DNA from: Deltaproteobacteria bacterium
GTDB lineage: Bacteria > Desulfobacterota > Desulfobacteria > Desulfobacterales > Desulfobacteraceae
NCBI GenBank assembly: GCA_027858995.1
Contig: JAQIBP010000072.1
Location: 6,614 to 70,613 of the forward strand
Reading direction: 5' to 3'
DNA length: 64,000 bases
Shown here: positions 1,107-36,739 of the stretch, in pieces
How the letters are laid out: each line of letters starts with the position of its first letter
Position numbering within the stretch: the stretch's first letter is position 1
Position numbers and translations under genes: made by a program
Notes under the pieces: model-generated
Told to the model about the DNA's origin: nothing
The model's input: only the letters and a program-made list of their open reading frames with translations
Database searches by the model: none

Positions 1107-1279
1107 AATCTCCTTTACAATGATTTTTATTTATAATTATCGTGTATCAAAATCATATACAGACAATTTACAGTCATCTGATATGATTACATACCATGAT
1201 CATAATCCAATCATGAATAACTGGCACCATTTGGACAGCTTGTCAAGTTAAATATAACAAAACTTCTCATTTTTTTTTA

Positions 1280-1304
1280 AAATTTATTAAAAATTAATAA
1301 ATTT
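1280..1304. promoter_or_regulatory. Perfect 11-bp inverted repeat AAATTTATTAA-aaa-TTAATAAATTT in the divergent mttB-like/rpiR intergenic region; candidate operator.
   Basis: Read directly from the sequence. A second inverted repeat, TGTCAAA-N9-TTTGACA, lies at 1431-1453, about 60 nt upstream of the rpiR start. Confidence 0.3.
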
Positions 1305-1515
1305 GATGTGTTTTGTTACATTATTTTTAAAAGATCAGTCCCAATTAAATATCTCTTTTATTTAAACATGTTATTGTTAATTCACAAATTAGCTATCAAA
1401 TATATTCAGATAATTCTTTGCAAGTGTCAGTGTCAAAATAACAAAATTTGACAATTTCAGGCAGAAATGCAACAAATCAATAACATACAAACTTTTTGAG
1501 ATACGGGAAATTCAG

Positions 1516-2382: not shown

Positions 2383-3166
2383 AAAAATCAGCTAACAGAC
2401 TGCCGGGGATATGACAGACCGGTATTGGTTCCATTTTATGTTTGTTGGCGATATGGAATTTTTTATAAATGGATAGAACCTTTTTCTGTCTTTTATTCAA
2501 TGTCTCTTTTTGGGAAGAATCAAGATATGCCATTGCCCACTCAAGTTCTTTATAAGTAGCACCTATCTGGCTTTCATCACTTCTGTTATCGTACCATAGC
2601 CCATCTGTGGGTGCAGCAGTCAAGATATCTTCAATAATTCCTAAACTTTTACCAAGGCTGTAAACTTGAGTTTTTGTAAGATCGGCAATGGGTGATATAT
2701 CCACACCGCCATCTCCATATTTAGTATAAAATCCCACTCCAAAATCTTCAACTCTGTTGCCTGTTCCTGTAACAAGCATTTTATGGCTTGATGCAAAGGC
2801 ATACAAAGTAAGCATGCGAAGTCTGGATCTTGTATTGGCCATGGTCATACTATCCTGAATAGAGCCGGGAAAGCTTCTTTTTATCTCTTCAAAAACAGGG
2901 GACAGCTCCATGTCAATGCCCTGGACATTGTCAAATTTTTTTTCAAGCCATGCAATATGGTCGCAAGATCTTACGATCTGATCTTTTGCCTGATAAATCG
3001 GCATATTCAGCACCAGAACAGGTTTGCCAGTTTTTGCACAAAGAGATGATGTAACAGCTGAATCAATTCCGCCTGAAACACCGATGACAAACCCTTTTAA
3101 ACCGGATCTGCCAAGATAGGTATCAAGCCATTTTACAATATGATCAATTATCTGTTTTGATTTCAT
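2372..3166 (-). CDS. nadE: Ammonia-dependent NAD+ synthetase
   Basis: The PP-loop GFVIGVSGGIDSAVTSSL is present. Length and overall layout are typical of NadE. Confidence 0.9.
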   Translation of the reverse strand: MKSKQIIDHIVKWLDTYLGRSGLKGFVIGVSGGIDSAVTSSLCAKTGKPVLVLNMPIYQAKDQIVRSCDHIAWLEKKFDNVQGIDMELSPVFEEIKRSFPGSIQDSMTMANTRSRLRMLTLYAFASSHKMLVTGTGNRVEDFGVGFYTKYGDGGVDISPIADLTKTQVYSLGKSLGIIEDILTAAPTDGLWYDNRSDESQIGATYKELEWAMAYLDSSQKETLNKRQKKVLSIYKKFHIANKHKMEPIPVCHIPGSLLADFFNN

Positions 3167-6070: not shown

Positions 6071-6716
6071 ATGAGCATAAAAATAATATTTCATGAGCAT
6101 TATTATAATTGCCAATATGCTGTAGATCCTGCGGCTTCCGAGGGACGTCTGGATGGAATCTTAAATATTATAAACAGCAAACCTCAATTGTATGAGATCA
6201 TTGAACCAATCCCAGCTACAGAAGCAGATATCCTCAGAGCGCATGGCAGGAACCATTATGAAAAAATAAAAAGACAGCCCCTGCTGTATGAATTAGGGGT
6301 ATTAGCAGCTGGTGGAGCTCTATTCAGAAAAAAAAATTAAAAAAGCTTTTATTCTGGATTTTGATCTTCATACCGGAGACGGAAATATCAATATTCTGGA
6401 AAATCGAAATGATGGATTAAGGGTTTCAATACTCAATCCTGAGTCAACAGAAAGAGGAAACTATATTCAGAAAGTTGAAGAATATATGAAAAAAATTACT
6501 GACGTCGACATTTTCGCAGCATCAGCAGGCTTTGATCAGGGCGTTGAAGATTGGGGGAACCTTCTTTTTCCAGAAGATTATGCAGAACTTGGACGGCTGA
6601 TGAAAGAATACTCGAAGAAGATATGCAATGGAAGAAGATATGCTATTCTTGAAGGGGGATACAACCACCAGGTGATTGGTACAAATGTAGATTCCTTTTG
6701 CTGTGGATTCGCATAA
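6071..6716 (+). pseudogene. Minimal histone-deacetylase/AcuC-family-like protein, split by a frameshift in an A9 tract (6328-6336)
   Basis: Track ORFs 6065-6340 (...ILRAHGRNHY...LAAGGALF) and 6312-6716 (FILDFDLHTGDGN...SAGFDQG...LEGGYN) fuse if A9 is read as A8. The HDAC metal-ligand and EGGY motifs are present. The RPPGHH catalytic block is absent. Confidence 0.6.
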
Positions 6717-6742
6717 TGTTGTTTTTCTACCAAAATTTTTGA

Positions 6743-6820
6743 TGATGTATTCTTTTGACATCTTTTATAATTTCAGCCTTTTAATACTACGTACAGGGAT
6801 AATAATCATTGATTTTAATT
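6743..6820. repeat. Copy 2 of the ~80-bp direct repeat, upstream of the thioesterase-GNAT pair. It contains GATAATAATCATT (6798-6810).
   Basis: Aligns with 5901-5980. Confidence 0.7.
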
Positions 6821-6895
6821 TTAATGGTATTATAGATATATGATCAATAATTTTTTATAATAGAATAAAAAAAGATTAATGGATGCTATTAAAAA

Positions 6896-7342
6896 ATGAA
6901 AAAAGAGATAAAAAATCCTTTTCCCGATGGCAATTGCTTCTTTTGTGGAAGCAATAACAAATTTGGTTTGAAACTTAAATTTTATTGGGATGAAGAAAAA
7001 AAAGAAGCCTCTACTGAATATCTGGCTGCTAAGCACTTCACCGGTCAGGGGAATATACTTCATGGAGCAATTCAAATGGGTCTTCTTGATGAAATCATGG
7101 GATGGACCAGTTATGTATTTACTGAAAAAATGGCTGTTACATCTGGTATTAATGTCAAATTTTTGAAGCCGGCTTATATTGATGGGGAAAAAATAAGCAT
7201 TACATGCAAAGTGACTTCAAAAGAAGGTTTGAAAATAAAAATGCATGCAAAACTTTTCAACATTAAAGGTGCTGCCTGTACAGAAGCTGAAGGAAGTTAC
7301 CATATTCTGTCATCAGAAAAATACAGGGATATTATTCAATGA
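6896..7342 (+). CDS. PaaI-family hotdog-fold thioesterase
   Basis: CFFCGSNNKFGLKLKF followed by HGAIQMGLLDEIMG is a typical hotdog thioesterase N-terminus. Confidence 0.7.
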   Translation: MKKEIKNPFPDGNCFFCGSNNKFGLKLKFYWDEEKKEASTEYLAAKHFTGQGNILHGAIQMGLLDEIMGWTSYVFTEKMAVTSGINVKFLKPAYIDGEKISITCKVTSKEGLKIKMHAKLFNIKGAACTEAEGSYHILSSEKYRDIIQ

Positions 7343-7800
7343 TAAAGATAGTGCCTTTTGAAAATATACATGCCGCAGCATTCAAACAATTGAATCTGGA
7401 ATGGCTTGAAACTTACGATCTTTTTGAGCCTGCTGATTTAAAATACCTTGATGACCCCCGGTCGAATATACTTGAGCAGGGCGGCAGAATTTTAATGGCC
7501 ATAAACAATAATTTTGTTATCGGCACTTGTGCAATTATAATGGAAACAAGTGATACTGCGGAACTTGCAAAACTGGCTGTTTCTCCTGATGCCCAGGGAG
7601 AAGGAGTCGGCCGTATGCTGGCCATGGAATCTATAAAAAAGGCACATAAAATGGGATTAAAAAAAATATTCCTTGTTTCAAACAGGAAATTGAACAGAGC
7701 TATTCGGTTGTATGAGTCCTTTGGGTTCAAACATATGCCAATCCCTAAAGACACAATATATAACACAGCTGATGTTTATATGGAAATGATAATAAATTAA
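7339..7800 (+). CDS. GNAT-family N-acetyltransferase
   Basis: The acetyl-CoA binding segment is LAVSPDAQGEGVGRMLA. The start overlaps the upstream stop by 4 nt (ATGA). Confidence 0.8.
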   Translation: MIKIVPFENIHAAAFKQLNLEWLETYDLFEPADLKYLDDPRSNILEQGGRILMAINNNFVIGTCAIIMETSDTAELAKLAVSPDAQGEGVGRMLAMESIKKAHKMGLKKIFLVSNRKLNRAIRLYESFGFKHMPIPKDTIYNTADVYMEMIIN

Positions 7801-18778: not shown

Positions 18779-19204
18779 ATGACAGAGACAATTTTTGCGT
18801 TCCTTAATAGTGTTGGTTTTACCCATCCTCTTCATCCTGCATTGACTCATATCCCCATGGGAATGGTCATGGGAGCAGTAGTATTCAGGATGGCTTCTTT
18901 TTTGCCCAAAATGAAACATCTTGCAAAGACAGGTTATCATTGTGTGATCTTAGGGCTTCTCGGTATTCCTCCAACTGTATTTGCAGGCTATCTTGACTGG
19001 CAGCATACCTATAGAGGTGAGTGGGAATTTTTAATTATCCTGAAAATAATACTTACAGGGATACTGACCATTACCCTGGCTGCCATTGCAATAATGGATG
19101 ATCCACAGGATACCAGATTTGACAAATTAACACTGTTCTATATTCTAACTTTTATTATGGCAGCAGGACTTGGCTTTTCAGGCGGAGAGATTCAATCTGG
19201 ATAA
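18779..19204 (+). CDS. DUF2231-like integral membrane protein
   Basis: Four hydrophobic helices, with HPLHPALTHIPMG and GYLDWQ motifs. It is a paralogue of the N-terminal domain of 26111-26821. Confidence 0.6.
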   Translation: MTETIFAFLNSVGFTHPLHPALTHIPMGMVMGAVVFRMASFLPKMKHLAKTGYHCVILGLLGIPPTVFAGYLDWQHTYRGEWEFLIILKIILTGILTITLAAIAIMDDPQDTRFDKLTLFYILTFIMAAGLGFSGGEIQSG

Positions 19205-19217
19205 AGGAGTAATTTTG

Positions 19218-19505
19218 ATGAAAAAAAATCTGTTTTTAATTTTATCAGTGATTATACTATCTTTAATGCTGCCTGTTTTTGCTTCTTCCATGGATTACAA
19301 CCACAAACTTGAAATGGACGATATGCAGTTTTCCTCGACAATTGAAGGGGATAAAATCCATGTAAAACTCACTTGCAGAGACAACAGGCTGGGTGGCAAA
19401 AATGATATATTAAATCCAGCAGTGACCAGTAAAATAATGCTGGCTTATGAAAGTGGCAGAGACTCATTTAAGAAACGGCATCACCACAGGAGTATCCTTT
19501 GTTGA
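19218..19505 (+). CDS. Hypothetical secreted protein
   Basis: The signal peptide is MKKNLFLILSVIILSLMLPVFASS and GGAG lies upstream of the ATG. Its 3' end overlaps the next ORF by 59 nt. Confidence 0.4.
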   Translation: MKKNLFLILSVIILSLMLPVFASSMDYNHKLEMDDMQFSSTIEGDKIHVKLTCRDNRLGGKNDILNPAVTSKIMLAYESGRDSFKKRHHHRSILC

Positions 19506-19686
19506 TCTTGGGAACCTGAATGTATGGATAACCCACTCTATTGCCACTATAAAAGGATCGCTGGTTCTAATGTTTTTCATGCATATGAAATATGAGGGGA
19601 AGGCGCTTATATTATCATTTATAGGTACAATATTCTTTCTAACTATCATGATCAGTTTTACATTCTGGAATGTTGCCTTCAGGTGA
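19447..19686 (+). CDS. Cytochrome c oxidase subunit IV (COX4_pro)-like small membrane protein, apparently lacking the first helix
   Basis: VSFVDLGNLNVWITHSIATIKGSLVLMFFMHMKYEG resembles the prokaryotic subunit IV signature (...KA.LV...FMHLK.E). There is no obvious SD sequence. Confidence 0.45.
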   Translation: MKVAETHLRNGITTGVSFVDLGNLNVWITHSIATIKGSLVLMFFMHMKYEGKALILSFIGTIFFLTIMISFTFWNVAFR

Positions 19687-19754: not shown

Positions 19755-20360
19755 TTATTCTTGAATAAGCTTTTCAAGAGTCTCATAGCGCTGAGCTCCC
19801 ACAAGTCGGTTGTTCCCATAAAAAAAAGTGGGGACCGCAGTTACACCTTTGGTTCTTGAAAGCTTCCAGTCTGAGCCCACAGCATTTGAGAATTTCCGTT
19901 TCTCAATAATTTTTCTCCCCTTTACAGGATCCAGCCCTGAATTTTCAATCAGATCAATCAGTACGTCTTTCAGTCCAATATTTAATCCTTGAACGAAATA
20001 TGCTTTAAAGACGTTCATATGAAACTTATGGCCAAGACCTTTAGATTCCGCCCAAAGACCTACTTCCTGGGCAAGACGGCTGTTATAAGTCATTGTCCTG
20101 TCACCAAAGCCAAACCCAAGTTTTGCTGCTGTTGTTTTTAATTGATCCACAATTTTATTCACATCAACTTGAACCCCCTTTTTTTTAAACATCTCTTTTA
20201 AAGTCTGACCCTGTTCAGGTGTATCAGGGTGAAGTGGGAAAGCTCTCCATTTTACATGAATATCATACTCTTTTTCCAATTTTTCAATACTCCCGGTACT
20301 GAAATAACACCAGGGTCATACATAGTCTGAAAATATTTCAAGCTCAAAAAATTTTGACAT
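19755..20360 (-). CDS. DsbA/FrnE-like thiol:disulfide oxidoreductase, predicted selenoprotein (UPWC active site; in-frame TGA at 20316-20318)
   Basis: The upstream in-frame extension reads MSKFFELEIFSDYV-TGA-PWCYFSTGSIEKL and joins the track ORF 19755-20279. The TGA falls exactly on the first Cys of the family's CPWC motif, and a hairpin follows. Confidence 0.8.
20292..20314 (-). promoter_or_regulatory. Candidate bacterial SECIS hairpin
   Basis: The mRNA reads UGA-C-CCUGGU-GUUAUUUCAGU-ACCGGG. This gives a 6-bp stem, extendable by two G.U pairs, that starts 2 nt after the UGA. Confidence 0.5.
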
Positions 20361-20471
20361 TACTGTTTTTAATTCCTATTACAATTTTATATTTTTTATA
20401 TTCCTGAAATTATATTGCTTTGTTATCACAACTTGAAATTATTATCTGTTTTCAGATATAAGTCAATCATT

Positions 20472-24692: not shown

Positions 24693-25136
24693 ATGCAACT
24701 CTTTAAAAAAACAACTGCAATCTTAAGTATACTATTTTGGTTTTTCACGGTGTATCTGGCTGTGCCACTCTTTGCCTCGGACAGTAAAACAGGTGCGCTG
24801 ATTAATTGTGACATCCAGCATCAACCCTGTACCCGGCAAATTTCAGGGACAATCGTCACCTTGGATATCCAGCCCAGGCCGGTAAAAGCCATGAAAGATC
24901 TTATCTTTGAAGTTCAAATTAAAAATGCGGATCTTACCCGGCTACCGATGATTGATCTGAGTATGCCGGGGATGAAAATGGGGCGAAACCAGGTTACGAT
25001 GAAGATGACGGCCAAAGGAGTCTATCAGGGAACCGGGATCATTGTCCGGTGTCCCAGCGGCAAAACCGTATGGCAGGCAACCGTTAATCTCCCGGGAACC
25101 GGCAGCACCAGCTTTATTTTTGATGTCATCTATTGA
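24693..25136 (+). CDS. FixH/YtkA-like periplasmic protein (signal anchor plus Ig-like domain)
   Basis: It has an N-terminal TM segment, and LDIQPRPVKAMKDLIFEVQI...MPGMKMG resembles YtkA/FixH-type domains. It sits beside cbb3 accessory genes. Confidence 0.5.
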   Translation: MQLFKKTTAILSILFWFFTVYLAVPLFASDSKTGALINCDIQHQPCTRQISGTIVTLDIQPRPVKAMKDLIFEVQIKNADLTRLPMIDLSMPGMKMGRNQVTMKMTAKGVYQGTGIIVRCPSGKTVWQATVNLPGTGSTSFIFDVIY

Positions 25137-25815
25137 TACATTATCTTTGGTGTTTCTGACAACCGGATTTACAGTGGGATTCGGCCATTGTATCGGTATG
25201 TGCGGTCCGATTGTCATTTCCATGTCATTGAACTTGAAGACCAGAAACACGATCTGGCCCCACATATTGTATCATGCCGGACGGGTGACAACCTATACGC
25301 TCCTCGGCGGAATAATGGGAGTGACAGGATCATTTGCAATGGTGGCATCCCGCATCGCACTGATTCAAAAAGGCGTTCTTATATTTTCCGGCGTACTCAT
25401 CATATTCATGGGAGTAATGATGGGTCCCTGGCTAATAAAATTTTCCTGTTTTAAGAACGAAACAGGCATCCAGACATTTTTTTCCAGAACCTTTGGATCT
25501 CTTGTCGGACTAAAATCGACCCTGGCCTTTTTCCCCCTGGGGTTGATGCTGGGTCTTTTGCCCTGCGGTCCGGTATACACGGTTCTGATTGCATCTGCCA
25601 GAGCAGGCATGGAGACAGCGGGTATGTATCAAAGTTTTATGAGTGGCATGGTTCTGATGCTCTTTTTTGGTATCGGTACCATTCCTGCACTTTTTTTCGT
25701 GGGCAGACTGGCAGGAACTGCCCGGTTTATACGGGGACCGATCATATACAAATTGGGTTCCTTCATCATGATGGGTCTGGGTATTTATTTTGTTTTTAAG
25801 GGAATTCGATATTAA
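25123..25815 (+). CDS. DsbD_2/TauE-like membrane protein with a GHCxGMCGP motif
   Basis: GFGHCIGMCGPIV and LLPCGPVY are present, with about 6 TM helices. The ATG at 25123 overlaps the upstream gene by 14 nt. Confidence 0.6.
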   Translation: MSSIDTLSLVFLTTGFTVGFGHCIGMCGPIVISMSLNLKTRNTIWPHILYHAGRVTTYTLLGGIMGVTGSFAMVASRIALIQKGVLIFSGVLIIFMGVMMGPWLIKFSCFKNETGIQTFFSRTFGSLVGLKSTLAFFPLGLMLGLLPCGPVYTVLIASARAGMETAGMYQSFMSGMVLMLFFGIGTIPALFFVGRLAGTARFIRGPIIYKLGSFIMMGLGIYFVFKGIRY

Positions 25816-26110
25816 ACTCACTTAAAACCATTTGTAAGGTTTTTAATATTTTTACGACTGATTATCGGGTGGTTCTCCACAGGGCTTGCGTTTTGACAAT
25901 AAAATGAAATGAACTCAATTGGCTTGAGTACTAAGATTAAAATAATAAAAAACAAAATGGATGTGTGGCAGACACTGTGAAAAGCGGAGAAAGATTTAAT
26001 TATTGTCCTTGACATTGAATAGCTATTTTTGTAATTTTTGGATCACCTTTTATCCATTCAATGGGGCAATAGAATCTATAAATTATTATAAAGATTAAAA
26101 GGGGGGTTTA

Positions 26111-26821
26111 ATGGCGTCATTGTTTTACGACTTTTTAAGAAATTTAGGGTATCATCATCCCGTTCACCCGGCACTCACCCACGTACCACTGGGTCTGGTT
26201 ATTGCCAGCTTTGTCTTTATGCTTCTGGCCTTTTTCCTAAAGGGATCAGCTTATGGGAAGACGGCAAAACATTGTATTGTTTTAGCTTTGTTATCTGCTG
26301 TCCCCACAGTAGTGATCGGCTATTTTGACTGGCAAATATTCTATGCCGGTTCTTATATATTTCCTATTATCATGAAATTAATACTTGCCACTTTGCTATT
26401 GGTTCTGCTGGTGATACTGGTGTTCATCAGTTCTAACAATGAAGGAAACTTAACAAGGCGATTACAGATACATTTTCTGGCCCTTTTATTAGTGGCGGGT
26501 ATTGGCTATTTTGGTGGGGAACTGGTCTATGGGAAAAAAATATCAGCGCCAGCAGCTGAAATAAATGAATCTGTCCTGGCCGGAATGGAACTGTTTGATG
26601 CGAAATGTTCATTCTGTCACTTTGCTGATAGCAACGAAGCCAAGGTTGGACCCGGTTTCAAGGGCATATTTCAAATGGACAAGCTGCCGATGAGTGGAAT
26701 GCCTGTTACTTCCGAAAACATTGAAAAGCAGTTGAAAACACCTTTTAATAAAATGCCGTCCTTTAAAAGTCTTACGGATGATGAGATCAAATCATTGACA
26801 GATTATTTAAAAACACTATAA
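26111..26821 (+). CDS. DUF2231-like membrane domain fused to a C-terminal monohaem cytochrome c domain
   Basis: HPVHPALTHVPLG and GYFDWQ are shared with 18779-19204. The C-terminal part carries CSFCH (CxxCH) and a downstream Met-containing segment. Confidence 0.65.
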   Translation: MASLFYDFLRNLGYHHPVHPALTHVPLGLVIASFVFMLLAFFLKGSAYGKTAKHCIVLALLSAVPTVVIGYFDWQIFYAGSYIFPIIMKLILATLLLVLLVILVFISSNNEGNLTRRLQIHFLALLLVAGIGYFGGELVYGKKISAPAAEINESVLAGMELFDAKCSFCHFADSNEAKVGPGFKGIFQMDKLPMSGMPVTSENIEKQLKTPFNKMPSFKSLTDDEIKSLTDYLKTL

Positions 26822-26898: not shown

Positions 26899-29349
26899 TC
26901 ATGGTTTGTTTTTCGATTCCCTTTTTACAAGCAGCAGGGTATTGAATGTCACGGAAAGACTGCTTAGAAGCATGGCAGATGCTGCAATGATGGGATTCAG
27001 CAGCCCGCTTGCCGCCAAAGGAATACTGATGAGGTTATAAACCAGTGCGAATATAAGGTTCTGCCTGACTTTTGAATTTACCCGTTTTGAAAGTGTTATA
27101 AAATCAAGTAACTGAACCGGAGTTTCCTGCATAAGAGTGATGGCTGCAACGCCTTCACCCGGGTTAAGGCCTGAATGAACAGCTACTGCTATATCTGATT
27201 GTGCCATTGCCGGGGCATCGTTTATTCCGTCACCCACCATGGCGATCTTTTTACCGGATTGTTTAAGGGCCTTGATAAAATCGGCTTTTTCGTGGGGCAG
27301 CAATCCCCCATGAGTATGCTCAGCCGGGATGTGTACAAATGATCCGGCATCCATGGTGGTTTTTGGGGCATCTCCTGAAATTAAAAAGCTGGTGAATCCT
27401 GCTTCTTTAAGATCGGAAACAAGTGCTTTTACCCCGGTTTTCATGGAATCCCCCAGATGGACAGCCGCTACAATTGTATCATTCATTGACAGGAAAACCG
27501 TTGATATTACCTGGGCTCCTTGTCTGGAAGGGGAGACAAAAGATGGGGTACGACTCCTTTCTTTCTTTGCAAACTCCATACTGCCGAAAAGATATGTCTC
27601 ACCTTGAAGAAGACCGCTGATGCCATTGGATTGGTACCTGACATTTTCCAGGTCAACAGATGTTATGTTCTGTGCAACCTTGAAAGCTCTGATGGCGTTT
27701 GCAATAAAGTGGTCCGATCCTTGTTCCATGGCACAGACAATCTGCCAGGCTTTTTTGGAAGAAAAATCAGGCGCTGTATCCATGCCCAGTACTTCGAGTT
27801 TCGCAGTTGTCAGTGTACCGGTTTTATCAAAAACGATTGTATCAAGGCCTTCAATTTTTTCAAATGCTTCAAAATCCCTTACCAGAATTCCTTTTTTCCC
27901 TGCGGCAGAGACACCGGCCACCAGTGCAAGTGGAATGGCAATACCCAGTGCACAGGGACATGAAATCACCAGGACTGAAATCCCCCGGTTGAATGCTTCA
28001 TAGGAAGACAGCCCGTTTATCATCCAGAAAAAAAAAGTGAACAAGGAAAGTCCCATAACCGACGGCACAAAGAATTTTAAAAGAGTTTCAAACCGCTGGG
28101 TCTGGGCGGTTTTAACAGACAGGCTGTTTTCCATGATAAAAAGCATTCTGCCGAGAATTGATTCCTCACCTACTTTCACGGCGTTTACCTGAATGGCTCC
28201 GGAAATAATTTTTGTACCGCTTTTGACCTTGTCCGTAGGAGTGACCCTGACCGGTTTTGCCTCACCTGTTATTGAGGACTCGTCAATAACGGCATTCCCT
28301 TTTGTGACAATGCCGTCCGCAGCCAAAATTTCTCCTTGTTCAGCCTGGAAGGTGTCTCCCTTGGACAATTGTTTTATGGATACATACCGTCCTCTGGGAA
28401 ATAATTCTGTACAGATTCTTACCTTTTGGGGAACTAAAGAGAAAAAACTCCAAAGCCCTTGGGCGATCCTGGCTTTAGCAGACTGCTCCAGCATTTTCCC
28501 GATCAGGATTAACAGGACCAGCATGGATGCTGCATCAAAGTAAAGATGGATACTGCCTATGGAAAGATGAAACAGACTGTAAAAATAGGCAGAGAAGGAA
28601 CCGGTTGAAATCAGAGTTTCCATCCCCGGCCGTCCGGATTTGATACCTGTAATCGTCCGCTTATGTATGGGATATCCACCGTAAAACACAACCACTGAGG
28701 CCATCAGGAAAACAGGCCATGCCAGCATTTGCACGGAACGAGTTGACAGTTCAATGAAGAACCCCGAATAGAGGGCCCAGGAGAGCATCATTACATTCAT
28801 GGTTAAAAACAGTGTGACGAAAAGGCGGATAAATTCCCTTGTGTTCTTTTGGGGCTTTTCATCAGGGGATGCTGATGAGTAACCCAGTTTTTCAATGGTA
28901 TGAAAAATTTTATCAGGAGATGTTTTTACAGGATCATAAAGGACGTTTCCCCTGTCACTGGAAAAATTGCAGCAGGCTTTTATCACACCGCTTGACTGTG
29001 TGAGGGCATTTTCAATGACCCATGCACAGGCAGGGCACCACATATGGAGGATGTGGAAATTGAGGGCAAGGAGGTTCTCAGTATTTCCGGAAAATGCCTC
29101 GCGGTTCTCTTTGGAAAATGTCACACCGGAGGCGGGTTCTTTTTTTAAAGGGTCCGGAATAACCCCTGCTGCAACACATTGTTTGTACAGAAGGGTTTCT
29201 TTGAAGTCAGTTGAATCTTTGCACTGATCTGATTCCATCAGCATGGTATAAACCATTTTACAGCCATTGCAGCAGAAAAGATTTTCTGCCGGATTTGTTG
29301 GCATCAAAACCGGCAGACCGCAAAGTGTACACGAACCAGAAGTGTTCAT
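26899..29349 (-). CDS. ccoI: Copper-translocating P1B-type ATPase, CcoI/FixI-like
   Basis: The N-terminus CTLCGLPV...CCNGCKMVY is followed by an HMA-like MWCPAC, the CPC motif (SCPCALGIA), DKTGTLT and GDGINDAP. Confidence 0.9.
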   Translation of the reverse strand: MNTSGSCTLCGLPVLMPTNPAENLFCCNGCKMVYTMLMESDQCKDSTDFKETLLYKQCVAAGVIPDPLKKEPASGVTFSKENREAFSGNTENLLALNFHILHMWCPACAWVIENALTQSSGVIKACCNFSSDRGNVLYDPVKTSPDKIFHTIEKLGYSSASPDEKPQKNTREFIRLFVTLFLTMNVMMLSWALYSGFFIELSTRSVQMLAWPVFLMASVVVFYGGYPIHKRTITGIKSGRPGMETLISTGSFSAYFYSLFHLSIGSIHLYFDAASMLVLLILIGKMLEQSAKARIAQGLWSFFSLVPQKVRICTELFPRGRYVSIKQLSKGDTFQAEQGEILAADGIVTKGNAVIDESSITGEAKPVRVTPTDKVKSGTKIISGAIQVNAVKVGEESILGRMLFIMENSLSVKTAQTQRFETLLKFFVPSVMGLSLFTFFFWMINGLSSYEAFNRGISVLVISCPCALGIAIPLALVAGVSAAGKKGILVRDFEAFEKIEGLDTIVFDKTGTLTTAKLEVLGMDTAPDFSSKKAWQIVCAMEQGSDHFIANAIRAFKVAQNITSVDLENVRYQSNGISGLLQGETYLFGSMEFAKKERSRTPSFVSPSRQGAQVISTVFLSMNDTIVAAVHLGDSMKTGVKALVSDLKEAGFTSFLISGDAPKTTMDAGSFVHIPAEHTHGGLLPHEKADFIKALKQSGKKIAMVGDGINDAPAMAQSDIAVAVHSGLNPGEGVAAITLMQETPVQLLDFITLSKRVNSKVRQNLIFALVYNLISIPLAASGLLNPIIAASAMLLSSLSVTFNTLLLVKRESKNKP

Positions 29350-29366
29350 TGCATCACCGGATCTTT

Positions 29367-29897
29367 TTAGTGAGCATTTTTCTGCATGGATCTGACATAT
29401 AGGATAACAGCGTTCCTACTTTCAACGGTCATTGAGCTTGCAAGGGCAGGTGTTTTTTCACTGCCGTAGCTAATAACGGAAAATATTTCTTTATCACGTA
29501 AGTCAGATACTTTTTTCCCTGTCAAATTCGCAGGAAGGGGAAAAAAACTTTGTCCCACAGTTCCGAGTCCATCCAGGTTGACCCCGTGACAATGGGAACA
29601 GAATGTCTGGTAATCTTTTTCTCCTTTTGTCAATGATGCTTTCAAGGATCCTGTTGGCATTTCGGGAAACATATTTTTATAGTTTTCTTTCATCAGTTTT
29701 TCTTTCATCAGTTTTTCGCTTTTATGGAAAGCCACTAATCGTTTGTCCATTACCAGAAGCGGTTCCTCATGGGGACGAAGAACCGGGGTCTGGTTCATTC
29801 TTCCAACTTTCATAGTTGAATCGTACAGTGTGATGACAGTATAGACACCTGTTAACGCAATCATTGCAAAAACCGCAAGAAATAGAACCTTTTTCAT
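29367..29897 (-). CDS. Membrane-anchored monohaem cytochrome c (ActE-like/CcoP-like)
   Basis: An N-terminal TM anchor is followed by CSHCHG and the distal segment ...SEKTPALAS. It contains a perfect 5-aa tandem duplication, KLMKE-KLMKE. Confidence 0.75.
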   Translation of the reverse strand: MKKVLFLAVFAMIALTGVYTVITLYDSTMKVGRMNQTPVLRPHEEPLLVMDKRLVAFHKSEKLMKEKLMKENYKNMFPEMPTGSLKASLTKGEKDYQTFCSHCHGVNLDGLGTVGQSFFPLPANLTGKKVSDLRDKEIFSVISYGSEKTPALASSMTVESRNAVILYVRSMQKNAH

Positions 29898-30124
29898 TTG
29901 ATTCCCTCCCTGCCGTTTATATGTTGTCCTGCAGGATTTTTTTCATACACGGCATAGGGGGATTCCGAAGGAATACTTTTCACCGGCCGATAATCCCATG
30001 TGGGCTGGCCCTTATCCGACACCACGATAAAGGTGAAGTATCCGACACCAATTATAATAGCGACCATAGCGAAGATATGCAGCCAGGTAAACCATATCGT
30101 ATCTTTAAATCTGGGTAAGTTCAT
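29894..30124 (-). CDS. Hypothetical single-TM membrane protein within the oxidase operon
   Basis: Its ORF is tightly packed (4-nt overlap) with one hydrophobic helix. No motif was recognised. Confidence 0.4.
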   Translation of the reverse strand: MNLPRFKDTIWFTWLHIFAMVAIIIGVGYFTFIVVSDKGQPTWDYRPVKSIPSESPYAVYEKNPAGQHINGREGIK

Positions 30125-30128
30125 AAAT

Positions 30129-30404
30129 TTATAATATTACCTCCGAAAAGCCATAAAACAGGATATAATACAGCGCCCAAAGAAACGTACCGGCAATCAG
30201 CAATGTTATGATCAGCGGGAAAGGGCCATCTGCCTTTTCTATATTGTCTGCAAAGTGCTGAATCGGTTTAATTTTCAGGACTCGGCTGATGGGCCCTGAT
30301 GTTGGGATAAATGCCAGGGCAACGCCAAAAAGAATTAAAAAAATTATGGCGACAATGATCAGGGCAATGACGTGCTGAGTGTTTAAAAGCTCAAAAAATC
30401 TCAT
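30129..30404 (-). CDS. Hypothetical two-TM membrane protein within the oxidase operon
   Basis: Its ORF is tightly packed with two hydrophobic helices. No motif was recognised. Confidence 0.4.
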   Translation of the reverse strand: MRFFELLNTQHVIALIIVAIIFLILFGVALAFIPTSGPISRVLKIKPIQHFADNIEKADGPFPLIITLLIAGTFLWALYYILFYGFSEVIL

Positions 30405-30431
30405 TAAAAATTCCTCTTTGAGAATATCTGC

Positions 30432-30686
30432 CTAACTAAAAAAAAGTGCATACCCTAAAAGGGCAATGCTTGCCAAAATTGCTGCAAGGGCCAGTGAAAA
30501 AATAAAATAGAGCTGGTATCTGCCTCTCATGGAAGTGGGTCCTGCCTGTGGTCCGATATCTTCCAGAGCCAGAAATCTTGCCCGCTGCTGGTCAGAGAAC
30601 TGCCCGCTTTTCAGAGCCCAGTAAAAAACTGTGCCACCGATAAAAAGTCCTGTAAGAATATATGTCAGAAAAAATGGATAATACAT
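30432..30686 (-). CDS. ccoS: cbb3 oxidase maturation protein CcoS/FixS-like, with an extra C-terminal helix
   Basis: FYWALKSGQFSDQQ matches the CcoS signature (W.....GQFDD). Confidence 0.7.
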   Translation of the reverse strand: MYYPFFLTYILTGLFIGGTVFYWALKSGQFSDQQRARFLALEDIGPQAGPTSMRGRYQLYFIFSLALAAILASIALLGYALFFS

Positions 30687-30713
30687 TTGTCCGGCCTCTA
30701 TGTTTGTAATGGT

Positions 30714-31649
30714 TTAAGGTTCATAGGATGCATCAATTCCTTTGGGTTCCATATCTGCATCGATTTGATCAATGAAATATTTTGCAATAAAATTTCCAAC
30801 ATCCCATATTTTTTCGGATTCCAGCTCTCTTTTAAAGTAGGGCATGGCGGTTCCGGTGATACCGTTCATTATCTGATAATAGATAATTCCCCCGCTTATC
30901 CCCCGGCCTTTTAGCGTGGTAAAGTTTAAGGGCGGCGGATAAATATAGGGTTGGGCCGGTCCCATACCGTCCCCGACGGGCCCGTGGCAGCCAAAACAAA
31001 AATCCTGGTATATTTTTCGGCCCCGTGCAAGTCCTGCGTCTGTAGCCGGGTAGGGAGTGGGAATGTTTCGCCACCCTTTGGGTACATTTTCATGAATCCA
31101 TGCCACGTTTTGATCCACACCGGATTCGTAGGCATCAATAGTTTTCTGTTTCCAGAGTTTTTGTCTTTCAACTCTCTTGTCGGCATTCTTCATCCCGAGT
31201 CCCTGGACATACCGGGTCAATATGTCAATATTTTTTTCTTTTAAAAATTTAAACGGCGGCATGATGGAAAGGGGTCGTGTAAATCTGGGGTTGATAAAGT
31301 GAGCCAGATGCCAGTCATCCGGATGCTCTCCACCCTCCTGGGATAGATCGGGACCTGTTCTCTGGGAGCCCAGAAGTATAGGGCGATCCTTTAAATAATC
31401 TCCGGCCTGTGCAATTCTTTCCGCGCCCAGTCCCCAGTCTACAGCCCGTATGGACTGGGTATGACAATAAACGCATCCGTTGCTGATATAGAGGGCACGG
31501 CCTTTTTTTTCCACACTAGTCCTTGTTCTGAACAAATCCGAAGGTATGGTTTTGCTTGTGTCTGCATAGGGAAGAATCACGACGACCGATACCACTGCAA
31601 TAAGAATGAGAAGGCTGCCGCTGACAATGGCTGTTGCTGTCATTTTCAT
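30714..31649 (-). CDS. ccoO: cbb3-type cytochrome c oxidase subunit II (CcoO) fused to a second monohaem cytochrome c domain
   Basis: NGCVYCHTQSIR, GPDLSQEG and DDWHLAHFINP are CcoO blocks. A second CFGCHG domain with ...GTAMP lies at the C-terminus. Confidence 0.85.
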   Translation of the reverse strand: MKMTATAIVSGSLLILIAVVSVVVILPYADTSKTIPSDLFRTRTSVEKKGRALYISNGCVYCHTQSIRAVDWGLGAERIAQAGDYLKDRPILLGSQRTGPDLSQEGGEHPDDWHLAHFINPRFTRPLSIMPPFKFLKEKNIDILTRYVQGLGMKNADKRVERQKLWKQKTIDAYESGVDQNVAWIHENVPKGWRNIPTPYPATDAGLARGRKIYQDFCFGCHGPVGDGMGPAQPYIYPPPLNFTTLKGRGISGGIIYYQIMNGITGTAMPYFKRELESEKIWDVGNFIAKYFIDQIDADMEPKGIDASYEP

Positions 31650-33028
31650 GAGTTTTCTCCGGAAGTTAAAAACAGGGATCTAAAAATATTATAACATCCT
31701 GCAATGGAGGCTAAAAAAATCAACAGGCCCAGTGACGCCCTGACAACATTGTATATGTGGATCTGTGGGAGTATCCGATACACGGTCTCTCCGTTCAGCC
31801 ATGCATTGCCCTGGATGAGTCCGGAAATGGTTAACACAATTGTAAATCCGGCCACGCCGATCACGATCATCCAGAATTGCAAATCAGCCAGAAATCGGCT
31901 GAAAAGTGGTTTGCCCGTTATTCTCGGAATAGTGAAGTAAAGGCCTCCCAGTGCAATCATTCCGGCAAATCCAAGGACACCCACATGGGCATGGCCCACG
32001 ACCCAGTGGCTGAAGTGGGTCACCCGCTGAACATCCGGAAGCGACATCATGGAGCCCCTTATACTCACGATAAAATACATGACGGTTCCGGTAAAAACAA
32101 ATTTTCCCCCGATATCCTCATGGATCAACCCGAGTTTTCCCCTGGCTGTGTACCAGATATTGATGAGAAACGCCATCACCGGAATGACCATGGCGATACT
32201 GTCAACAATGGCAACTACTTTGAGCCAGGTGGGAACCGGCACCTGTAAAAGATGGTGGGTTCCGATATGGGTATAGATGACAATCAGGGCCCAGAATCCC
32301 AGGAGTGAAAGGGTATGACTGTATAGAGGCGATCTGCAGACCTGGGGGATGATATAATACGCAGTTGCTGCGGAAAGCGGTGTCAACAGAAGCCCAAACA
32401 CATTGTGTCCGTAAAACCATAAAAGAATCGCATCCGGAATACCGCTTAATGCGCCGGAATCCGGTTGCCAGATAACATTTCCCATGGCATAGGTGCATGC
32501 GGTAAGAATGGTCGCAGCCAGTACATACCATACAGACACATAAAGGATTTTCTCTTTTCTGTTTTTTACCGTCATTGCAAAATTAAAGAAAATCAGAATA
32601 AAAACAAGAACAATGCCGACATCAATAGGCCAGATCATTTCTGCATATTCTCTTCCCTGTGTAAATCCGGCGCCAAGGGTGATCACCAAGGCTATCAGGG
32701 CAATATTCCACAGGACAATCGTCACGATTCCCAGTTTTTCACTATAAAGTTGGGTTCGCAGTAACCGGGGAACAAAATAGAATGCACTGGCAAGAAGACC
32801 GGGAGTCACAAATCCGAAGAGTACCAGGTTGACATGGATGGGGCGAAGTCTTGAGAACAACAGCCAGGTAATGTTGCCGGTCAGATCAGGGGCGACAAGT
32901 TCTATGGCTGCCACAAGTCCTGCCAGTGTTGCAACCATCATCCAGGCCGCAGAGGTCAGGCAGAATCCTTTGGCTGTCAGGTAAGTGGCGGTATTGGGTC
33001 GGGTCAGATTCTCGGGCAAAACAAACAC
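31646..33028 (-). CDS. ccoN: cbb3-type cytochrome c oxidase subunit I
   Basis: WFYGHNVFGLLLTP and HWVVGHAHVGVLG are haem/CuB ligand regions, with about 12 TM helices. Confidence 0.9.
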   Translation of the reverse strand: MFVLPENLTRPNTATYLTAKGFCLTSAAWMMVATLAGLVAAIELVAPDLTGNITWLLFSRLRPIHVNLVLFGFVTPGLLASAFYFVPRLLRTQLYSEKLGIVTIVLWNIALIALVITLGAGFTQGREYAEMIWPIDVGIVLVFILIFFNFAMTVKNRKEKILYVSVWYVLAATILTACTYAMGNVIWQPDSGALSGIPDAILLWFYGHNVFGLLLTPLSAATAYYIIPQVCRSPLYSHTLSLLGFWALIVIYTHIGTHHLLQVPVPTWLKVVAIVDSIAMVIPVMAFLINIWYTARGKLGLIHEDIGGKFVFTGTVMYFIVSIRGSMMSLPDVQRVTHFSHWVVGHAHVGVLGFAGMIALGGLYFTIPRITGKPLFSRFLADLQFWMIVIGVAGFTIVLTISGLIQGNAWLNGETVYRILPQIHIYNVVRASLGLLIFLASIAGCYNIFRSLFLTSGENS

Positions 33029-33035
33029 TCCTTTA

Positions 33036-33665
33036 TTAGTTGTGACAGGAAAGCCAGCAGTCCAGGTTGGCTTTTTCTTTTCTGTGACATTCTATACAAA
33101 ATCCCATTTTAAAATCATGGCGCTTGAGCCTGTCAGTTCCCTCTATATCCCCATGGCATGTTTCACACTGGACTTCTTTTTTTATGTGGCGTTCGTGGTT
33201 GAACATGACATGTTCCGGGACATAAAAAACCTTTTTCCATGGTGTGGGTGTCTTCGTATCAAAGTAATCGTGTTCTTTTTTTATTTCCGGGTGTTTTGGA
33301 ATGATGAAATTATGACAATAAAGGCATTTTTCAACCGGTGGAATCCCCGGGTGGATAGACCGGTCAACATATGAATGGCAGAAACGGCAGTCGATCTGTT
33401 TGTCCCCTGCATGCAGCCTGTGACTGAATGCGATGGGTTGCACGGGACCTGCATCCACATGGGGCATGGCGTAGTAAAAATAGGCAAACAGGGCAAGTAA
33501 AATGATCAGCGAGCTTAACGTGAGCAGCTGGACTTTGTTGTCAACAATCCGCGCTGTAACCGAATTAAAGTGATAAACCAGAGTCAAAGGTTTTCCTTTT
33601 GTTCCCACCAGAATCATCAGGATGGCAAGGGTTAGAAGTGTCAGGGAGATCAGTATTATTTCCAT
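33036..33665 (-). CDS. actA: Alternative Complex III pentahaem cytochrome c subunit ActA-like
   Basis: It has a TM anchor and PIAFSHRLHAG. Haem motifs are CRFCH, CLYCH, CETCH and CIECH, plus a terminal CWLSCH (CX3CH). Confidence 0.8.
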   Translation of the reverse strand: MEIILISLTLLTLAILMILVGTKGKPLTLVYHFNSVTARIVDNKVQLLTLSSLIILLALFAYFYYAMPHVDAGPVQPIAFSHRLHAGDKQIDCRFCHSYVDRSIHPGIPPVEKCLYCHNFIIPKHPEIKKEHDYFDTKTPTPWKKVFYVPEHVMFNHERHIKKEVQCETCHGDIEGTDRLKRHDFKMGFCIECHRKEKANLDCWLSCHN

Positions 33666-34894
33666 TGAATCACCTCGCCTGAATCCGGTTTCAATACTTC
33701 AGGAAATTCCTTGAAATAAAATTTTACAGCAATGACCAGGAGAGCCAGAAATCCAAGTGTAATGATTATTCCGCTTAACCCGATGGGGAAAATGCCGGGG
33801 TCGTGATCCAGGTAGCTTGGGCCTAACAGGAGAAAATGCTCGACCCAGAGACCCACCAGAACACATGAGCTGACAACGATCATGCACCTGGGGGATTCTT
33901 TGACCTTCCGGATTAAAAGGATGATAAAGGGCATGAGAAAACAGATGATAAATACCGTCCATGCCAGGATGTTCCAGGGGGCTGTCATGGTCCGTTCAAT
34001 TATATAGGCGGTTTCTTCGGGAATATTCGCATACCAGATAACCACGAATTGTGAATAAAAGAAATCCCCCCATACAATACTGAAACCAAAAAACAATGTA
34101 CTCATGTCGCGCAACTGGGAAGATGAAAGGCGAAACGGATTATTCGGGTTTAAGTGAAGGAGGGCTGCCAAAAGGATAATCGCACCAAACCCCCCGTAGA
34201 TGGCTTTGATGAATGTATAGGCACCAAAAAGAGTTGAATACCAGTGCGGGTCCATGCTCATGACAAGATCAAACCCTGTCAGGGACAGAACCAAAGCAAA
34301 GACCAACATATACCAGCCTGCAAAAATTGTCATTCGCTTTTTAATTGTTTCAGGGGAATCCGGGTATTTTTCAAAGTATTTAAATAAAAATTGTTTCACC
34401 TGAGTGTTTTTTTCTGCATGTTTTAATCTGAACTTAAGCGCATTATAAAGGTAGGCAAATCCAAGGGAATAGAGAATCAGAAAACCTACAAAGTCCCGTG
34501 TGAATAAAAAGGGAACATTGAGCCATACACCCTTGCCGTGCAGGTCTTCTCCTATCCATGTGAACACGTGGTTCTGTCCTGCGAAAAGAAAAATAAAAAG
34601 AATGAAGGAAACAGGGAAAAAAGCGGCAAAGGCTTCTGCAACAGCCGCAAGGCTGTGGCTCCATTTGGCTTTGGTAAAGTGCATGAGGGTTGAAAACAGA
34701 AGCCCCCCGGCAGTCAGGGCAGTAAAAAACATGAAATTTGTCAGATATAAAAGCCAGGCTTTTTCCGGATGTGCCATTGCGGCATAAAAAATAAAAAACA
34801 AAAACCCGGCGCCTGCAATGGCTGCAGGAATCAGAAAAACATTTTTTCTCCAGGTGACAGAAAATTTTTTCATGACTGTATCCGTAGACGTCAT
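33656..34894 (-). CDS. actF: Alternative Complex III membrane subunit ActF-like
   Basis: A polytopic membrane protein of about 10 TM helices, placed after actD within the ACIII cluster. Confidence 0.65.
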   Translation of the reverse strand: MTSTDTVMKKFSVTWRKNVFLIPAAIAGAGFLFFIFYAAMAHPEKAWLLYLTNFMFFTALTAGGLLFSTLMHFTKAKWSHSLAAVAEAFAAFFPVSFILFIFLFAGQNHVFTWIGEDLHGKGVWLNVPFLFTRDFVGFLILYSLGFAYLYNALKFRLKHAEKNTQVKQFLFKYFEKYPDSPETIKKRMTIFAGWYMLVFALVLSLTGFDLVMSMDPHWYSTLFGAYTFIKAIYGGFGAIILLAALLHLNPNNPFRLSSSQLRDMSTLFFGFSIVWGDFFYSQFVVIWYANIPEETAYIIERTMTAPWNILAWTVFIICFLMPFIILLIRKVKESPRCMIVVSSCVLVGLWVEHFLLLGPSYLDHDPGIFPIGLSGIIITLGFLALLVIAVKFYFKEFPEVLKPDSGEVIQWK

Positions 34895-35406
34895 TTGTTT
34901 TCCCTATATTCTTTTAAAGACCCTGTCTGTTGAAGCAGGTCCCTAAGACTGTCAACATCTTCGGGTGCTGAAGTGACTTCAATTCCATACAGGGAGCCGG
35001 AGCATTCCGGGGCATAGTTCTTTTCATAGTCTTTTTCAGGTAGCCCCACCTGGGTCAATATTCCCAGCACATTCCCCAGCACGGCAAAAAGGATGGTGCA
35101 CTCAAAGGCGATGACAAAAAAAGGTATCCAGGAAACAATGGGCTTTCCGCTGACAATGAGGTTCCATCGGGTGGCAGTGAACACGGCAAGTGCAAATCCG
35201 GAAAAAAATCCAATGATCCCGCCGGTGAGCGTAAACCATCCGACTTTGCTTTTTTTTCTGCCCAATGCCCGGTTGATGGTGCTGCTGGGAATGGGACTGT
35301 GGACTTCTTTCACCTTCCAGCCCTTTTCCTGAACTTTTTTAATTGCCGCAAGAATTTCTTGCTGGGTATTAAAAAGACCTGTGACGATGACGGCATCCGT
35401 GCTCAT
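34891..35406 (-). CDS. actD: Alternative Complex III subunit ActD (DUF3341)
   Basis: A soluble N-terminal domain is followed by two TM helices. GKPIVSWIPFFVIAFECTILFA is typical of DUF3341. Confidence 0.75.
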   Translation of the reverse strand: MSTDAVIVTGLFNTQQEILAAIKKVQEKGWKVKEVHSPIPSSTINRALGRKKSKVGWFTLTGGIIGFFSGFALAVFTATRWNLIVSGKPIVSWIPFFVIAFECTILFAVLGNVLGILTQVGLPEKDYEKNYAPECSGSLYGIEVTSAPEDVDSLRDLLQQTGSLKEYRENK

Positions 35407-35409
35407 GAA

Positions 35410-36714
35410 TTACTCCGTTTTATGTATAAGTTCTTTCATTTCAGTCATGGAAACAGACGGCAGGTGCTTGACAAAAAGCAGAAACAGAAAAAAGAAGAGA
35501 CAAAAAGCACCTATCATGATACCCCCCTCGACCCATGTGGGCCGGTAATGGCCCCAGGCATTGGGAAGAAAATCATGGGCAACGCTGCCCACGATGATGA
35601 CAAACCGTTCAAACCACATGCCGATATTAACAAAAATGGAAATGATAAACAGCCAGATCACATGGGTCCTGCATTTTCTGAATAAAAACAAAAGGGGGAT
35701 AATGGTATTGCATACCACCATGATCCAGTATTCCGGTGCGTAATGACCGAACGCCCTCCAACTGAATGTTTCCATTTCAATAATATTCTGGCTGTACCAG
35801 CTGATAAAGACTTCTGTACCGTAAGAAAATCCCACGATGACGCCTGTGAAAATAATGGTTTTTGCTATGTTTTCCAGCACATCCATGGTGATGAGGGCTT
35901 CATATTTGAATATCTTTCTCAAAGGAATACTTAAGGTCAGAACCATGGCAAGGCCTGAGTGAATCGCACCGGCAACAAAATAGGGTGCAAAAATGGTGGT
36001 GTGCCATCCCGGTATCACGCTCAGGGCAAAATCCCAGGAAACCACACTGTGGACGGAGATAACAAGAGGGGTTGCCAATCCGGCAAAGAGCATATACGCC
36101 CTTGTATAGTTCAGCCATTGACCTGTTTTACCGGACCATCCAAGTGCCAATACCGTGAAAATTTTTTTCCGCAAACCTTCGGAGCGGTCCCTGATAATGG
36201 CCAGATCCGGAATAAGCCCGGTATACCAGAAAAGACTGCTCACGGTTAAGTAAGTGCTGATGGCGATAACATCAAAGATCAACGGCGATTGAAAGTTTGG
36301 CCAAAGTGTCCGCTGGTTGGGAATGGGCAGCATATAGAACACCAGCCAGACCCGTCCCAGATGGATGAAAGGAAACAGCCCCGCTATGCAGACGGCAAAT
36401 ACGGTCATGGTTTCTGCTGCCCTGGCAATGGGGTTTCTCCACCCTGCGCGAAAGAGAAACAAAATCGCTGAAATCAGGGTTCCTGAATGGGCAATTCCCA
36501 CCCAGAAGACAAAATTGATCAAATAGGTGCCCCAGTGGACCGGGGTATTCATACCGGCCACGCCCACACCCACAAATATCTGGTATATCCAGCAGGCAGC
36601 ACCCAGGACCACTCCGGAAAACATCAGCGCAATGGTGCACCAGTAAATCTTTTCCGGACGCGTCAGCGTGTTCAGGACCGTGGTATTGATTGTTTCAAAA
36701 GTCAATTGAGACAT
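35410..36714 (-). CDS. actC: Alternative Complex III quinol-interacting membrane subunit ActC (NrfD/PsrC family)
   Basis: NrfD-like polytopic protein of about 10 TM helices, located immediately after actB. Confidence 0.8.
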   Translation of the reverse strand: MSQLTFETINTTVLNTLTRPEKIYWCTIALMFSGVVLGAACWIYQIFVGVGVAGMNTPVHWGTYLINFVFWVGIAHSGTLISAILFLFRAGWRNPIARAAETMTVFAVCIAGLFPFIHLGRVWLVFYMLPIPNQRTLWPNFQSPLIFDVIAISTYLTVSSLFWYTGLIPDLAIIRDRSEGLRKKIFTVLALGWSGKTGQWLNYTRAYMLFAGLATPLVISVHSVVSWDFALSVIPGWHTTIFAPYFVAGAIHSGLAMVLTLSIPLRKIFKYEALITMDVLENIAKTIIFTGVIVGFSYGTEVFISWYSQNIIEMETFSWRAFGHYAPEYWIMVVCNTIIPLLFLFRKCRTHVIWLFIISIFVNIGMWFERFVIIVGSVAHDFLPNAWGHYRPTWVEGGIMIGAFCLFFFLFLLFVKHLPSVSMTEMKELIHKTE

Positions 36715-36739
36715 ATTTTTAAAACCCCTGAGTAAAGAT

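Follow-up and report, generated by a model that had tools for sequence, protein, structure and literature searches.

The stretch of DNA considered here (the window) comprises 64,000 nucleotides of contig JAQIBP010000072.1, from a sulfate-reducer-like metagenome-assembled genome (MAG) of the Desulfobacteraceae (GCA_027858995.1), and the gene in question lies on its minus strand and appears to encode a selenocysteine (Sec)-containing relative of the thiol-disulfide oxidoreductases DsbA and FrnE. A mechanical open reading frame (ORF) call at this locus, 19755..20279 with a TTG start, yields a product of 174 residues without strand β1 and without the entire redox motif. Reading the same frame from further upstream gives, in order, an ATG, 14 codons, a TGA, 186 codons and a stop: ATG 20360..20358, MSKFFELEIFSDYV, TGA 20318..20316, PWCYFSTGSIEKLEKEYD... 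and TAA 19757..19755. The DsbA-like ORF seems to lack a redox motif because gene callers halt at the UGA and resume at the next TTG. An earlier note on this DNA had proposed exactly such a shortened call, and its positions for the ATG, TGA and TTG proved correct to the base; the proposal itself is borne out by conservation of the upstream frame through the TGA, and by a translated product that fills the whole of the DSBA domain profile. Coordinates of these and other features are collected in Table 1.

The choice of start codon is heavily constrained. An in-frame TAG lies six codons 5′ of the ATG and no alternative start codon occurs from there to the TGA, so that the ATG at 20360 is the only possible start. 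Homologous loci are arranged similarly, typically with a Met some 12-14 codons ahead of the TGA among the 117 distinct loci listed in the contig scan described below. In the one homologue read for its ribosome-binding site, L002, AAGGAG lies 6 nt ahead of the equivalent ATG.

With U written as C, the 201-residue product matches Pfam PF01323 (DSBA) across profile positions 2-191 of 191, with an E-value of 1.3e-32. Because the extended product spans these positions, the extension restores the missing N-terminus of the domain, including the β1 strand and active site that the earlier note had placed upstream; no NCBIfam model matched the 201-residue product at its cut-off. Among solved structures, the top match is Deinococcus radiodurans FrnE (5CNW and others), with E = 2.2e-16 over residues 5-195. 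Alignment with 5CNW places UPWC over CPWC, with Sec15 on Cys22, and AVPTF over GVPFF, such that the proline loop is conserved. Pro177 within this loop presumably corresponds to the cis-proline found opposite the active site of thioredoxin-fold oxidoreductases. A hydrophobic leader is absent from MSKFFELEIFSDYV on inspection (no signal-peptide predictor was run) and the active site is already reached at residue 15. Because β1 begins at residue 5, leaving no room for a signal peptide, a cytoplasmic location is predicted. Judged from sequence and alignment, the locus very probably encodes a cytoplasmic DsbA/FrnE-type thioredoxin-fold thiol-disulfide oxidoreductase of 201 residues bearing a Sec15-Pro-Trp-Cys18 motif.

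Comparison with characterized relatives helps to situate this protein. FrnE (5CNW, 5CP1 and related entries) shares the x-P-W-C motif, the conserved V/P loop and the DsbA fold, but carries Cys where Sec is proposed here and is longer, at 260 residues versus 201. FrnE bears a C-terminal extension; the window protein, on the other hand, ends right after the domain, at residue 201. The C-terminal tail of FrnE harbors an additional Cys motif. Periplasmic DsbA of the Escherichia coli type likewise has the thioredoxin fold, a CxxC-type motif and a PF01323 domain, but its motif is CPHC rather than UPWC, and the window protein lacks room for the signal peptide expected of a periplasmic enzyme.

The in-frame TGA is widely shared. 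Scanning metagenome contigs for the DNA pattern D-Y-x-TGA-P-W-C-Y-F returned at least 120 loci, of which 117 are distinct and genuine; all of the latter read ...LEIFSDY[IV]-TGA-PWCYF..., with the frame open on both sides of the TGA. Codons -8 to -4, which fall outside the search pattern, encode L/E/[IV]/F/S in 108-116 of these 117 sequences while drawing on up to six synonymous codons, and variation upstream of the TGA is greatest at third codon positions (0.52, versus 0.24 and 0.17 at first and second positions). Because third positions vary most while identity is kept at the protein level, the sequence upstream of the TGA appears to be translated in frame. Conservation of the UGA flanks, the criterion used in an earlier survey of selenoproteins (PMC1088965), is thus seen in at least 117 distinct loci, the upstream flank displaying synonymous variation.

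Protein databases tell a complementary story. The best 120 of 3,367 protein homologues comprise 64 N-terminally truncated calls, 39 full-length entries with W at the Sec site and 16 full-length entries with CPxC, and Cys forms occur only at 52% identity or below among the homologues compared. The nearest genome match of the selenoprotein belongs to a Desulfobacula MAG, at 88% identity. The earlier proposal that TGA has taken the place of the first Cys codon of a CPWC motif is upheld by the recurrence of TGA in at least 117 loci and of Cys at that position in homologues; the U aligns with the first Cys of the 16 CPxC entries, with that of CPxC-bearing genome loci and with Cys22 of FrnE. Three short “DsbA family proteins” annotated at NCBI, one in the complete genome CP054837 of a Desulfobacter sp., one in a Desulfobacula sp. 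and one in a Desulfamplus sp., were examined on their 5′ side, and each has ...LE[IV]FSDYV-TGA-PWCYF immediately ahead of its annotated start. Homologues truly beginning at the equivalent of 20279, named in the earlier note as contrary evidence, are therefore not represented among these entries (upstream in-frame TGA in 3/3).

Downstream of the UGA, a hairpin resembling a Sec insertion sequence (SECIS) is supported by covariation. The analysis used alignment A1, an ungapped alignment of the 117 listed sequences in which positions are counted with the U of UGA as 0. In the window gene the stem, UUUCAGUAC/GUAUUGAAA, begins 11 nt beyond the UGA and the apical loop, CGGGA at 20295..20291, 20 nt beyond it; the segment 20304..20282 folded alone has a free energy of -7.4 kcal/mol (z = -3.0). 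The pairs are +15/+35, +16/+34, +17/+33, +18/+32, +20/+30, +21/+29 and +22/+28, enclosing an apical loop at +23..+27, with +19/+31 mostly U.U or G.U. Across the alignment, 96.9% of cells in the +15..+35 hairpin are paired, and double-changed cells number 33 as against 4.0 +/- 1.8 in shuffles, a value reached in 0/500; control hairpins slid along the alignment fall to 19-58% paired.

Three pairs are especially informative. The +18/+32 pair appears 106 times as A-U and 10 times as G-C; +20/+30 is never broken (U-A in 99, C-G in 18); and +21/+29 is A-U in 110, G-C in five and G-U in two. On a neighbor-joining tree of 97 full-length sequences, computed from the part of the protein encoded 3′ of the hairpin, compensatory changes at each of these pairs amount to 5-8 independent events in which both columns change together. 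The coupled sites lie 10-14 nt apart and join a synonymous wobble position to a nonsynonymous first codon position (for instance, ATT/ATC with ATN(Ile)/GTN(Val)). Because wobble sites are coupled with nonsynonymous first positions, protein-level selection cannot explain the covariation of these pairs.

The loop is similarly constrained: it is CGGGC, CGUGC or CGGGA in 96 of the 117 sequences, the G at +24 is invariant, and wobble positions are biased toward C at +23 (86%) and G at +26 (88%). For comparison, ACC makes up 33% of Thr codons genome-wide and GGG 16% of Gly codons. Our alignment yields a family SECIS consensus of UUCAKUAC-CGKGM-GUAUUGAA, embedded within F-[IS]-T-G-[RS]-I-E codons. 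The paradigm of a bacterial SECIS bound by SelB is that of E. coli fdhF. Like it, the hairpin proposed here lies inside the ORF, presents a small apical loop with a G and has at position +19 mostly an unpaired U.U or a G.U; the two differ in sequence and loop (CGGGA here), and SelB binding to the present element would be by analogy. Published bacterial SECIS elements position the apical loop 16-37 nt from the UGA (PMC10778597), a range that holds for the fdhF comparison and includes the 20 nt observed here for a small, G-containing loop.

A different hairpin had been put forward in the earlier note, which took a stem-loop beginning 2 nt after the UGA (CCUGGU/ACCGGG; ACCCUGGU.../...ACCGGGAGU) for the SECIS. 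This stem-loop does exist and represents the lowest-energy fold of the RNA taken by itself (-9.5 kcal/mol), but its stability is that of shuffled sequence (z = -0.15; 75/200 shuffles fold as well). No covariation is found in this +2..+29 hairpin in alignment A1, where 448/500 shuffles reach the observed value. The one pair in it that is free to vary, +5/+25, is disrupted in 42% of the 117 sequences, and its apical loop lies merely 7-10 nt from the UGA, which is too near. On these grounds the +2..+29 hairpin is rejected as the SECIS.

Cys-containing homologues provide a natural comparison. Most retain just 3-4 of the seven pairs, even in cases of a near-identical peptide, as with CPWCYFMTGRIDR in Desulfofustis. 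Two Cys forms from Desulfobacterales MAGs, L007 (~3028..3070) and L029 (~1310..1350), keep 7/7 pairs; their Cys codon is TGC/TGT and their peptide CPWCYFITG[CG]IE. The hairpin in these two loci may represent a “fossil SECIS” that persists after a recent change from Sec to Cys.

Taken by analogy with the E. coli system, expression of the window gene would proceed as follows. A ribosome translating the mRNA would reach the UGA at 20318..20316, where SelB carrying Sec-tRNA(Sec) would bind the hairpin at 20304..20282 through its CGGGA loop, and Sec would be inserted in lieu of termination. By the chemistry of FrnE and DsbA, the selenolate of Sec15 would then attack substrate disulfides and cycle via a selenenylsulfide with Cys18.

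We place the probability that the window gene encodes a Sec-containing DsbA/FrnE-like protein at about 0.9. Several observations count against it. The Shine-Dalgarno-like AGGA, which the earlier note had reported and which was located at 20377..20374, is weak and lies 13 nt from the ATG. The scan pattern itself demanded a TGA and the D-Y-x and P-W-C-Y-F codons, so that conservation of those codons is a matter of ascertainment, and independent evidence from the scan comes only from flanks outside the search pattern. No Rfam family matches the hairpin, permissive E-values returning only chance hits, although this is uninformative for so short an element. Finally, searches for selA, selB, selD and tRNA-Sec came back empty, both in the 64-kb window and in the ~10 kb flanking it on each side. 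They combined Pfam annotation of ~40 ORFs, ARAGORN, and tblastn of the E. coli proteins SelA, SelB and SelD, run on the window and on the full 1.15 Mb of fetched loci, with the contig extended 10 kb each way. No tRNA was found in the window or ~10 kb either side, and the sole hit, in L114, was rejected as SelD, being an AIR-synthase-related protein. Desulfobacula-related marine Deltaproteobacteria have been reported to possess selA, selB, selD and selC (PMC8318568), and it is from such relatives only, by relatedness, that we infer Sec machinery in this genome.

The lack of Sec genes in the sequence searched would also suit a rival account, in which the TGA is a genuine stop, the 14 codons before it are untranslated leader, and a decayed or N-terminally truncated DsbA-like protein is made from the TTG at 20279; the mechanical ORF and public annotations give exactly this 174-residue product. 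Such a protein would lose the profile positions for β1 and the active-site helix. Moreover, across the 117 loci purifying selection at the protein level acts, in the same frame, on the 14 upstream codons, the TGA shows no drift to other stop or sense codons in at least 117 loci (from a scan that required TGA), and a covarying hairpin stands at SECIS distance. We consider a genuine stop very unlikely.

Slightly less probable again is decoding of the UGA by a standard amino acid, whether as Trp (codes 4 and 25) or as Cys by near-cognate read-through, giving WPWC or CPWC without selenium. The 39 entries deposited with W at the site, among the best 120 database homologues, would seem to speak for Trp. 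In the single case checked at the DNA level, L002 / P0034, the codon is TGA, rendered as Trp by the depositor's gene caller, which had probably applied code 4 or 25 to a short contig. (The W-type database homologues include P0007, P0020, P0025 and P0034, and the L002 gene lies at 921..1550.) Within the window, 11 of 43 ORFs terminate with TGA and TGG accounts for all 179 Trp codons counted, which establishes the standard code and rules out codes 4 and 25. Replacing the nucleophilic Cys by Trp would furthermore abolish a redox motif that is invariant in Cys homologues, and simple reassignment leaves the conserved downstream hairpin without explanation. No convincing second TGA-interrupted selenoprotein ORF was found in the window.

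A sequencing or assembly error concealing TGT or TGC is highly improbable, for although a homopolymer frameshift at an A-run near 921-931 of the window, in an mttB-like gene, shows the assembly to be imperfect, the identical 174-residue product downstream of the TGA recurs in independent assemblies (Logan SRR22875241, where the TGA was read directly in locus L001, and NCBI, JGI and ENA entries) and TGA is present in more than 100 diverged homologues. Window proteins are also identical to GenBank MDA3917045 and MDA3917075 and to those of a JGI contig, Ga0534203_000016.

Sec-containing proteins of this kind are not new. A “DsbA-like protein” selenoprotein family (COG2761, UxxC) was described in a study of the Sargasso Sea from nine sequences, together with a predicted SECIS (Zhang, Fomenko and Gladyshev 2005; PMC1088965), and further members were later recognized in Anaeromyxobacter, Desulfovibrio and Desulfotomaculum (PMC1794560) and in the delta1 symbiont of Olavius, which is of Desulfobacteraceae type (PMC1976440). 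A 2026 review lists “DsbA-like protein form 1, PF01323, UxxC” (PMC13188914). The predicted window protein displays all the sequence-level hallmarks of this family: the same Pfam domain, UxxC with Sec first and widespread Cys homologues, together with a SECIS inside the ORF just after the UGA that has a small G-containing loop. It differs in that public databases carry this copy un-annotated or in truncated form, and its subclade is likened to the family by description rather than by the published sequences. In essence, the family has been known since 2005, and the window gene is an additional, mis-annotated member.

Table 1. Features of the selenoprotein locus and its surroundings (window coordinates).
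Feature	Position	Strand	Remarks
Predicted full selenoprotein coding sequence	19755..20360	minus	201 residues (Sec = residue 15) plus TAA stop; from translation and from PF01323 and FrnE 5CNW alignments
Start codon ATG	20358..20360	minus	Sole start codon between upstream in-frame TAG and TGA
Weak Shine-Dalgarno-like AGGA	20374..20377	minus	13 nt before ATG; from sequence
Promoter-like TTGACT-17-AATAAT	20438..20466	minus	~78 nt 5′ of ATG; weak, such sites occur at chance number
In-frame UGA, predicted Sec	20316..20318	minus	Residue 15, first (nucleophilic) position of U-P-W-C; from conservation and alignment to first Cys
Cys18 codon, resolving cysteine of UxxC	20307..20309	minus	C18 column invariant in alignment A2
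SECIS-like hairpin	20282..20304	minus	9 bp including one G.U; from covariation
Hairpin of the earlier note	20289..20316	minus	Overlaps and is mutually exclusive with the supported hairpin; no positive evidence
TTG of mechanical ORF call	20277..20279	minus	Encodes an internal Leu (residue 28) rather than the true start; the three short database homologues examined all have upstream TGA
Pro177 codon in TAVPTF loop	19830..19832	minus	P177 invariant and V176 nearly so in A2; aligned with FrnE GVPFF
Conceptual tryptic peptide across Sec site			FFELEIFSDYV-U-PWCYFSTGSIEK
DUF2231 membrane protein	18779..19204		Convergent neighbor
ORF without Pfam family	19170..19505	plus	111 residues; signal-like N-terminus, His-rich C-terminus (KKRHHHRS); convergent neighbor
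COX4_pro-like protein	19447..19686	plus	79 residues; start overlapped by the 111-residue ORF; convergent neighbor
Xylose-isomerase-like triosephosphate isomerase (TIM) barrel gene and dehydroquinate (DHQ)-synthase-like gene			Divergent, upstream
DsbD_2 protein	25042..25815	plus	
DUF2231-cytochrome c fusion	within 25042..26821, with DsbD_2	plus	
P-type ATPase with heavy-metal-associated domain	26899..29349	minus	Probably copper-transporting
cbb3-like COX1/FixO	30714..33028	minus	
Alternative complex III (ACIII)-like cluster	33036..39700	minus	Molybdopterin subunit, two NrfD-type subunits, multihaem cytochrome c
Thioredoxin-reductase-like gene	41027..41947		

Respiratory genes of the MAG are clustered in the window, at 26899..39700 on the minus strand and 25042..26821 on the plus strand. 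The earlier description of the selenoprotein gene as sitting beside copper/oxidase accessory genes is roughly right within the window, but the arrangement is unconserved elsewhere: no conserved neighbor is found across the ~118 listed Sec-form loci, and because the largest neighbor cluster occurs in only five of them, an association with oxidase or copper genes is not a trait of the family.

Other features of the contig are recorded here in their own right. An mttB-like gene occupies window positions 1..~1106, continuing in L205 at 6198..7654, and is apparently frameshifted twice, at the A-run mentioned above and near its 3′ end outside the window. The Rfam model PYLIS_3, the mttB pyrrolysine insertion sequence, matches window 28..130 on the minus strand with 63 bits. 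Pyrrolysine use, and with it a “dual code expansion,” was considered and rejected: the UAG of the model is CUC (Leu) here (...SSGL-TDSKIPDAQAGYEK...), which makes this a non-pyrrolysine member of the MttB superfamily and the PYLIS_3 match a reflection of coding conservation. Beyond the left end of the window, by ~2-6.5 kb, a gene called with 1,505 residues and with a SIS domain as its sole Pfam match (L205 86..4603, minus strand) adjoins genes for a corrinoid protein and a pterin-binding methyltransferase. Some 1.4-4.8 kb past the right end, a HamA-domain gene adjoins a DEAD/ResIII helicase (L203 5228..8589); the pair resembles a Hachiman-type anti-phage pair, and its flanking genes are DUF3223 and, within the window, a Fic gene.

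How these observations might fit together is a more speculative matter, and the following joint reading is tentative, with somewhat less than even odds. The window gene could belong to a large clade of FrnE-like proteins, mostly from Desulfobacterales, that normally occur in the Sec form, homologues above ~52% identity all having TGA. A single family-specific SECIS may be conserved so strongly as to dictate the residues F-[IS]-T-G-[RS]-[IV]-E just past the active site, and the “fossil SECIS” loci L007 and L029 may represent recent reversions from Sec to Cys. The nearby cbb3-type oxidase, ACIII-like genes and P-type ATPase could point to a role in oxygen defense in a sulfate reducer.

No new principle is involved: that Sec can stand in for the attacking cysteine of a CxxC motif in proteins of DsbA-like fold has been known since 2005. 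The consequences are felt foremost in annotation: the public record of this MAG and many of its relatives shows a “DsbA family protein” that is missing its active site or has an artefactual Trp at the catalytic position. With 103 of the best 120 database homologues wrong, either shortened or bearing W, family alignments are polluted and a redox-active selenoprotein would be hidden from view. The SECIS defined here by covariation, in position, stem and loop, offers a precise target for annotation models and for mutagenesis of SelB recognition in Desulfobacterales.

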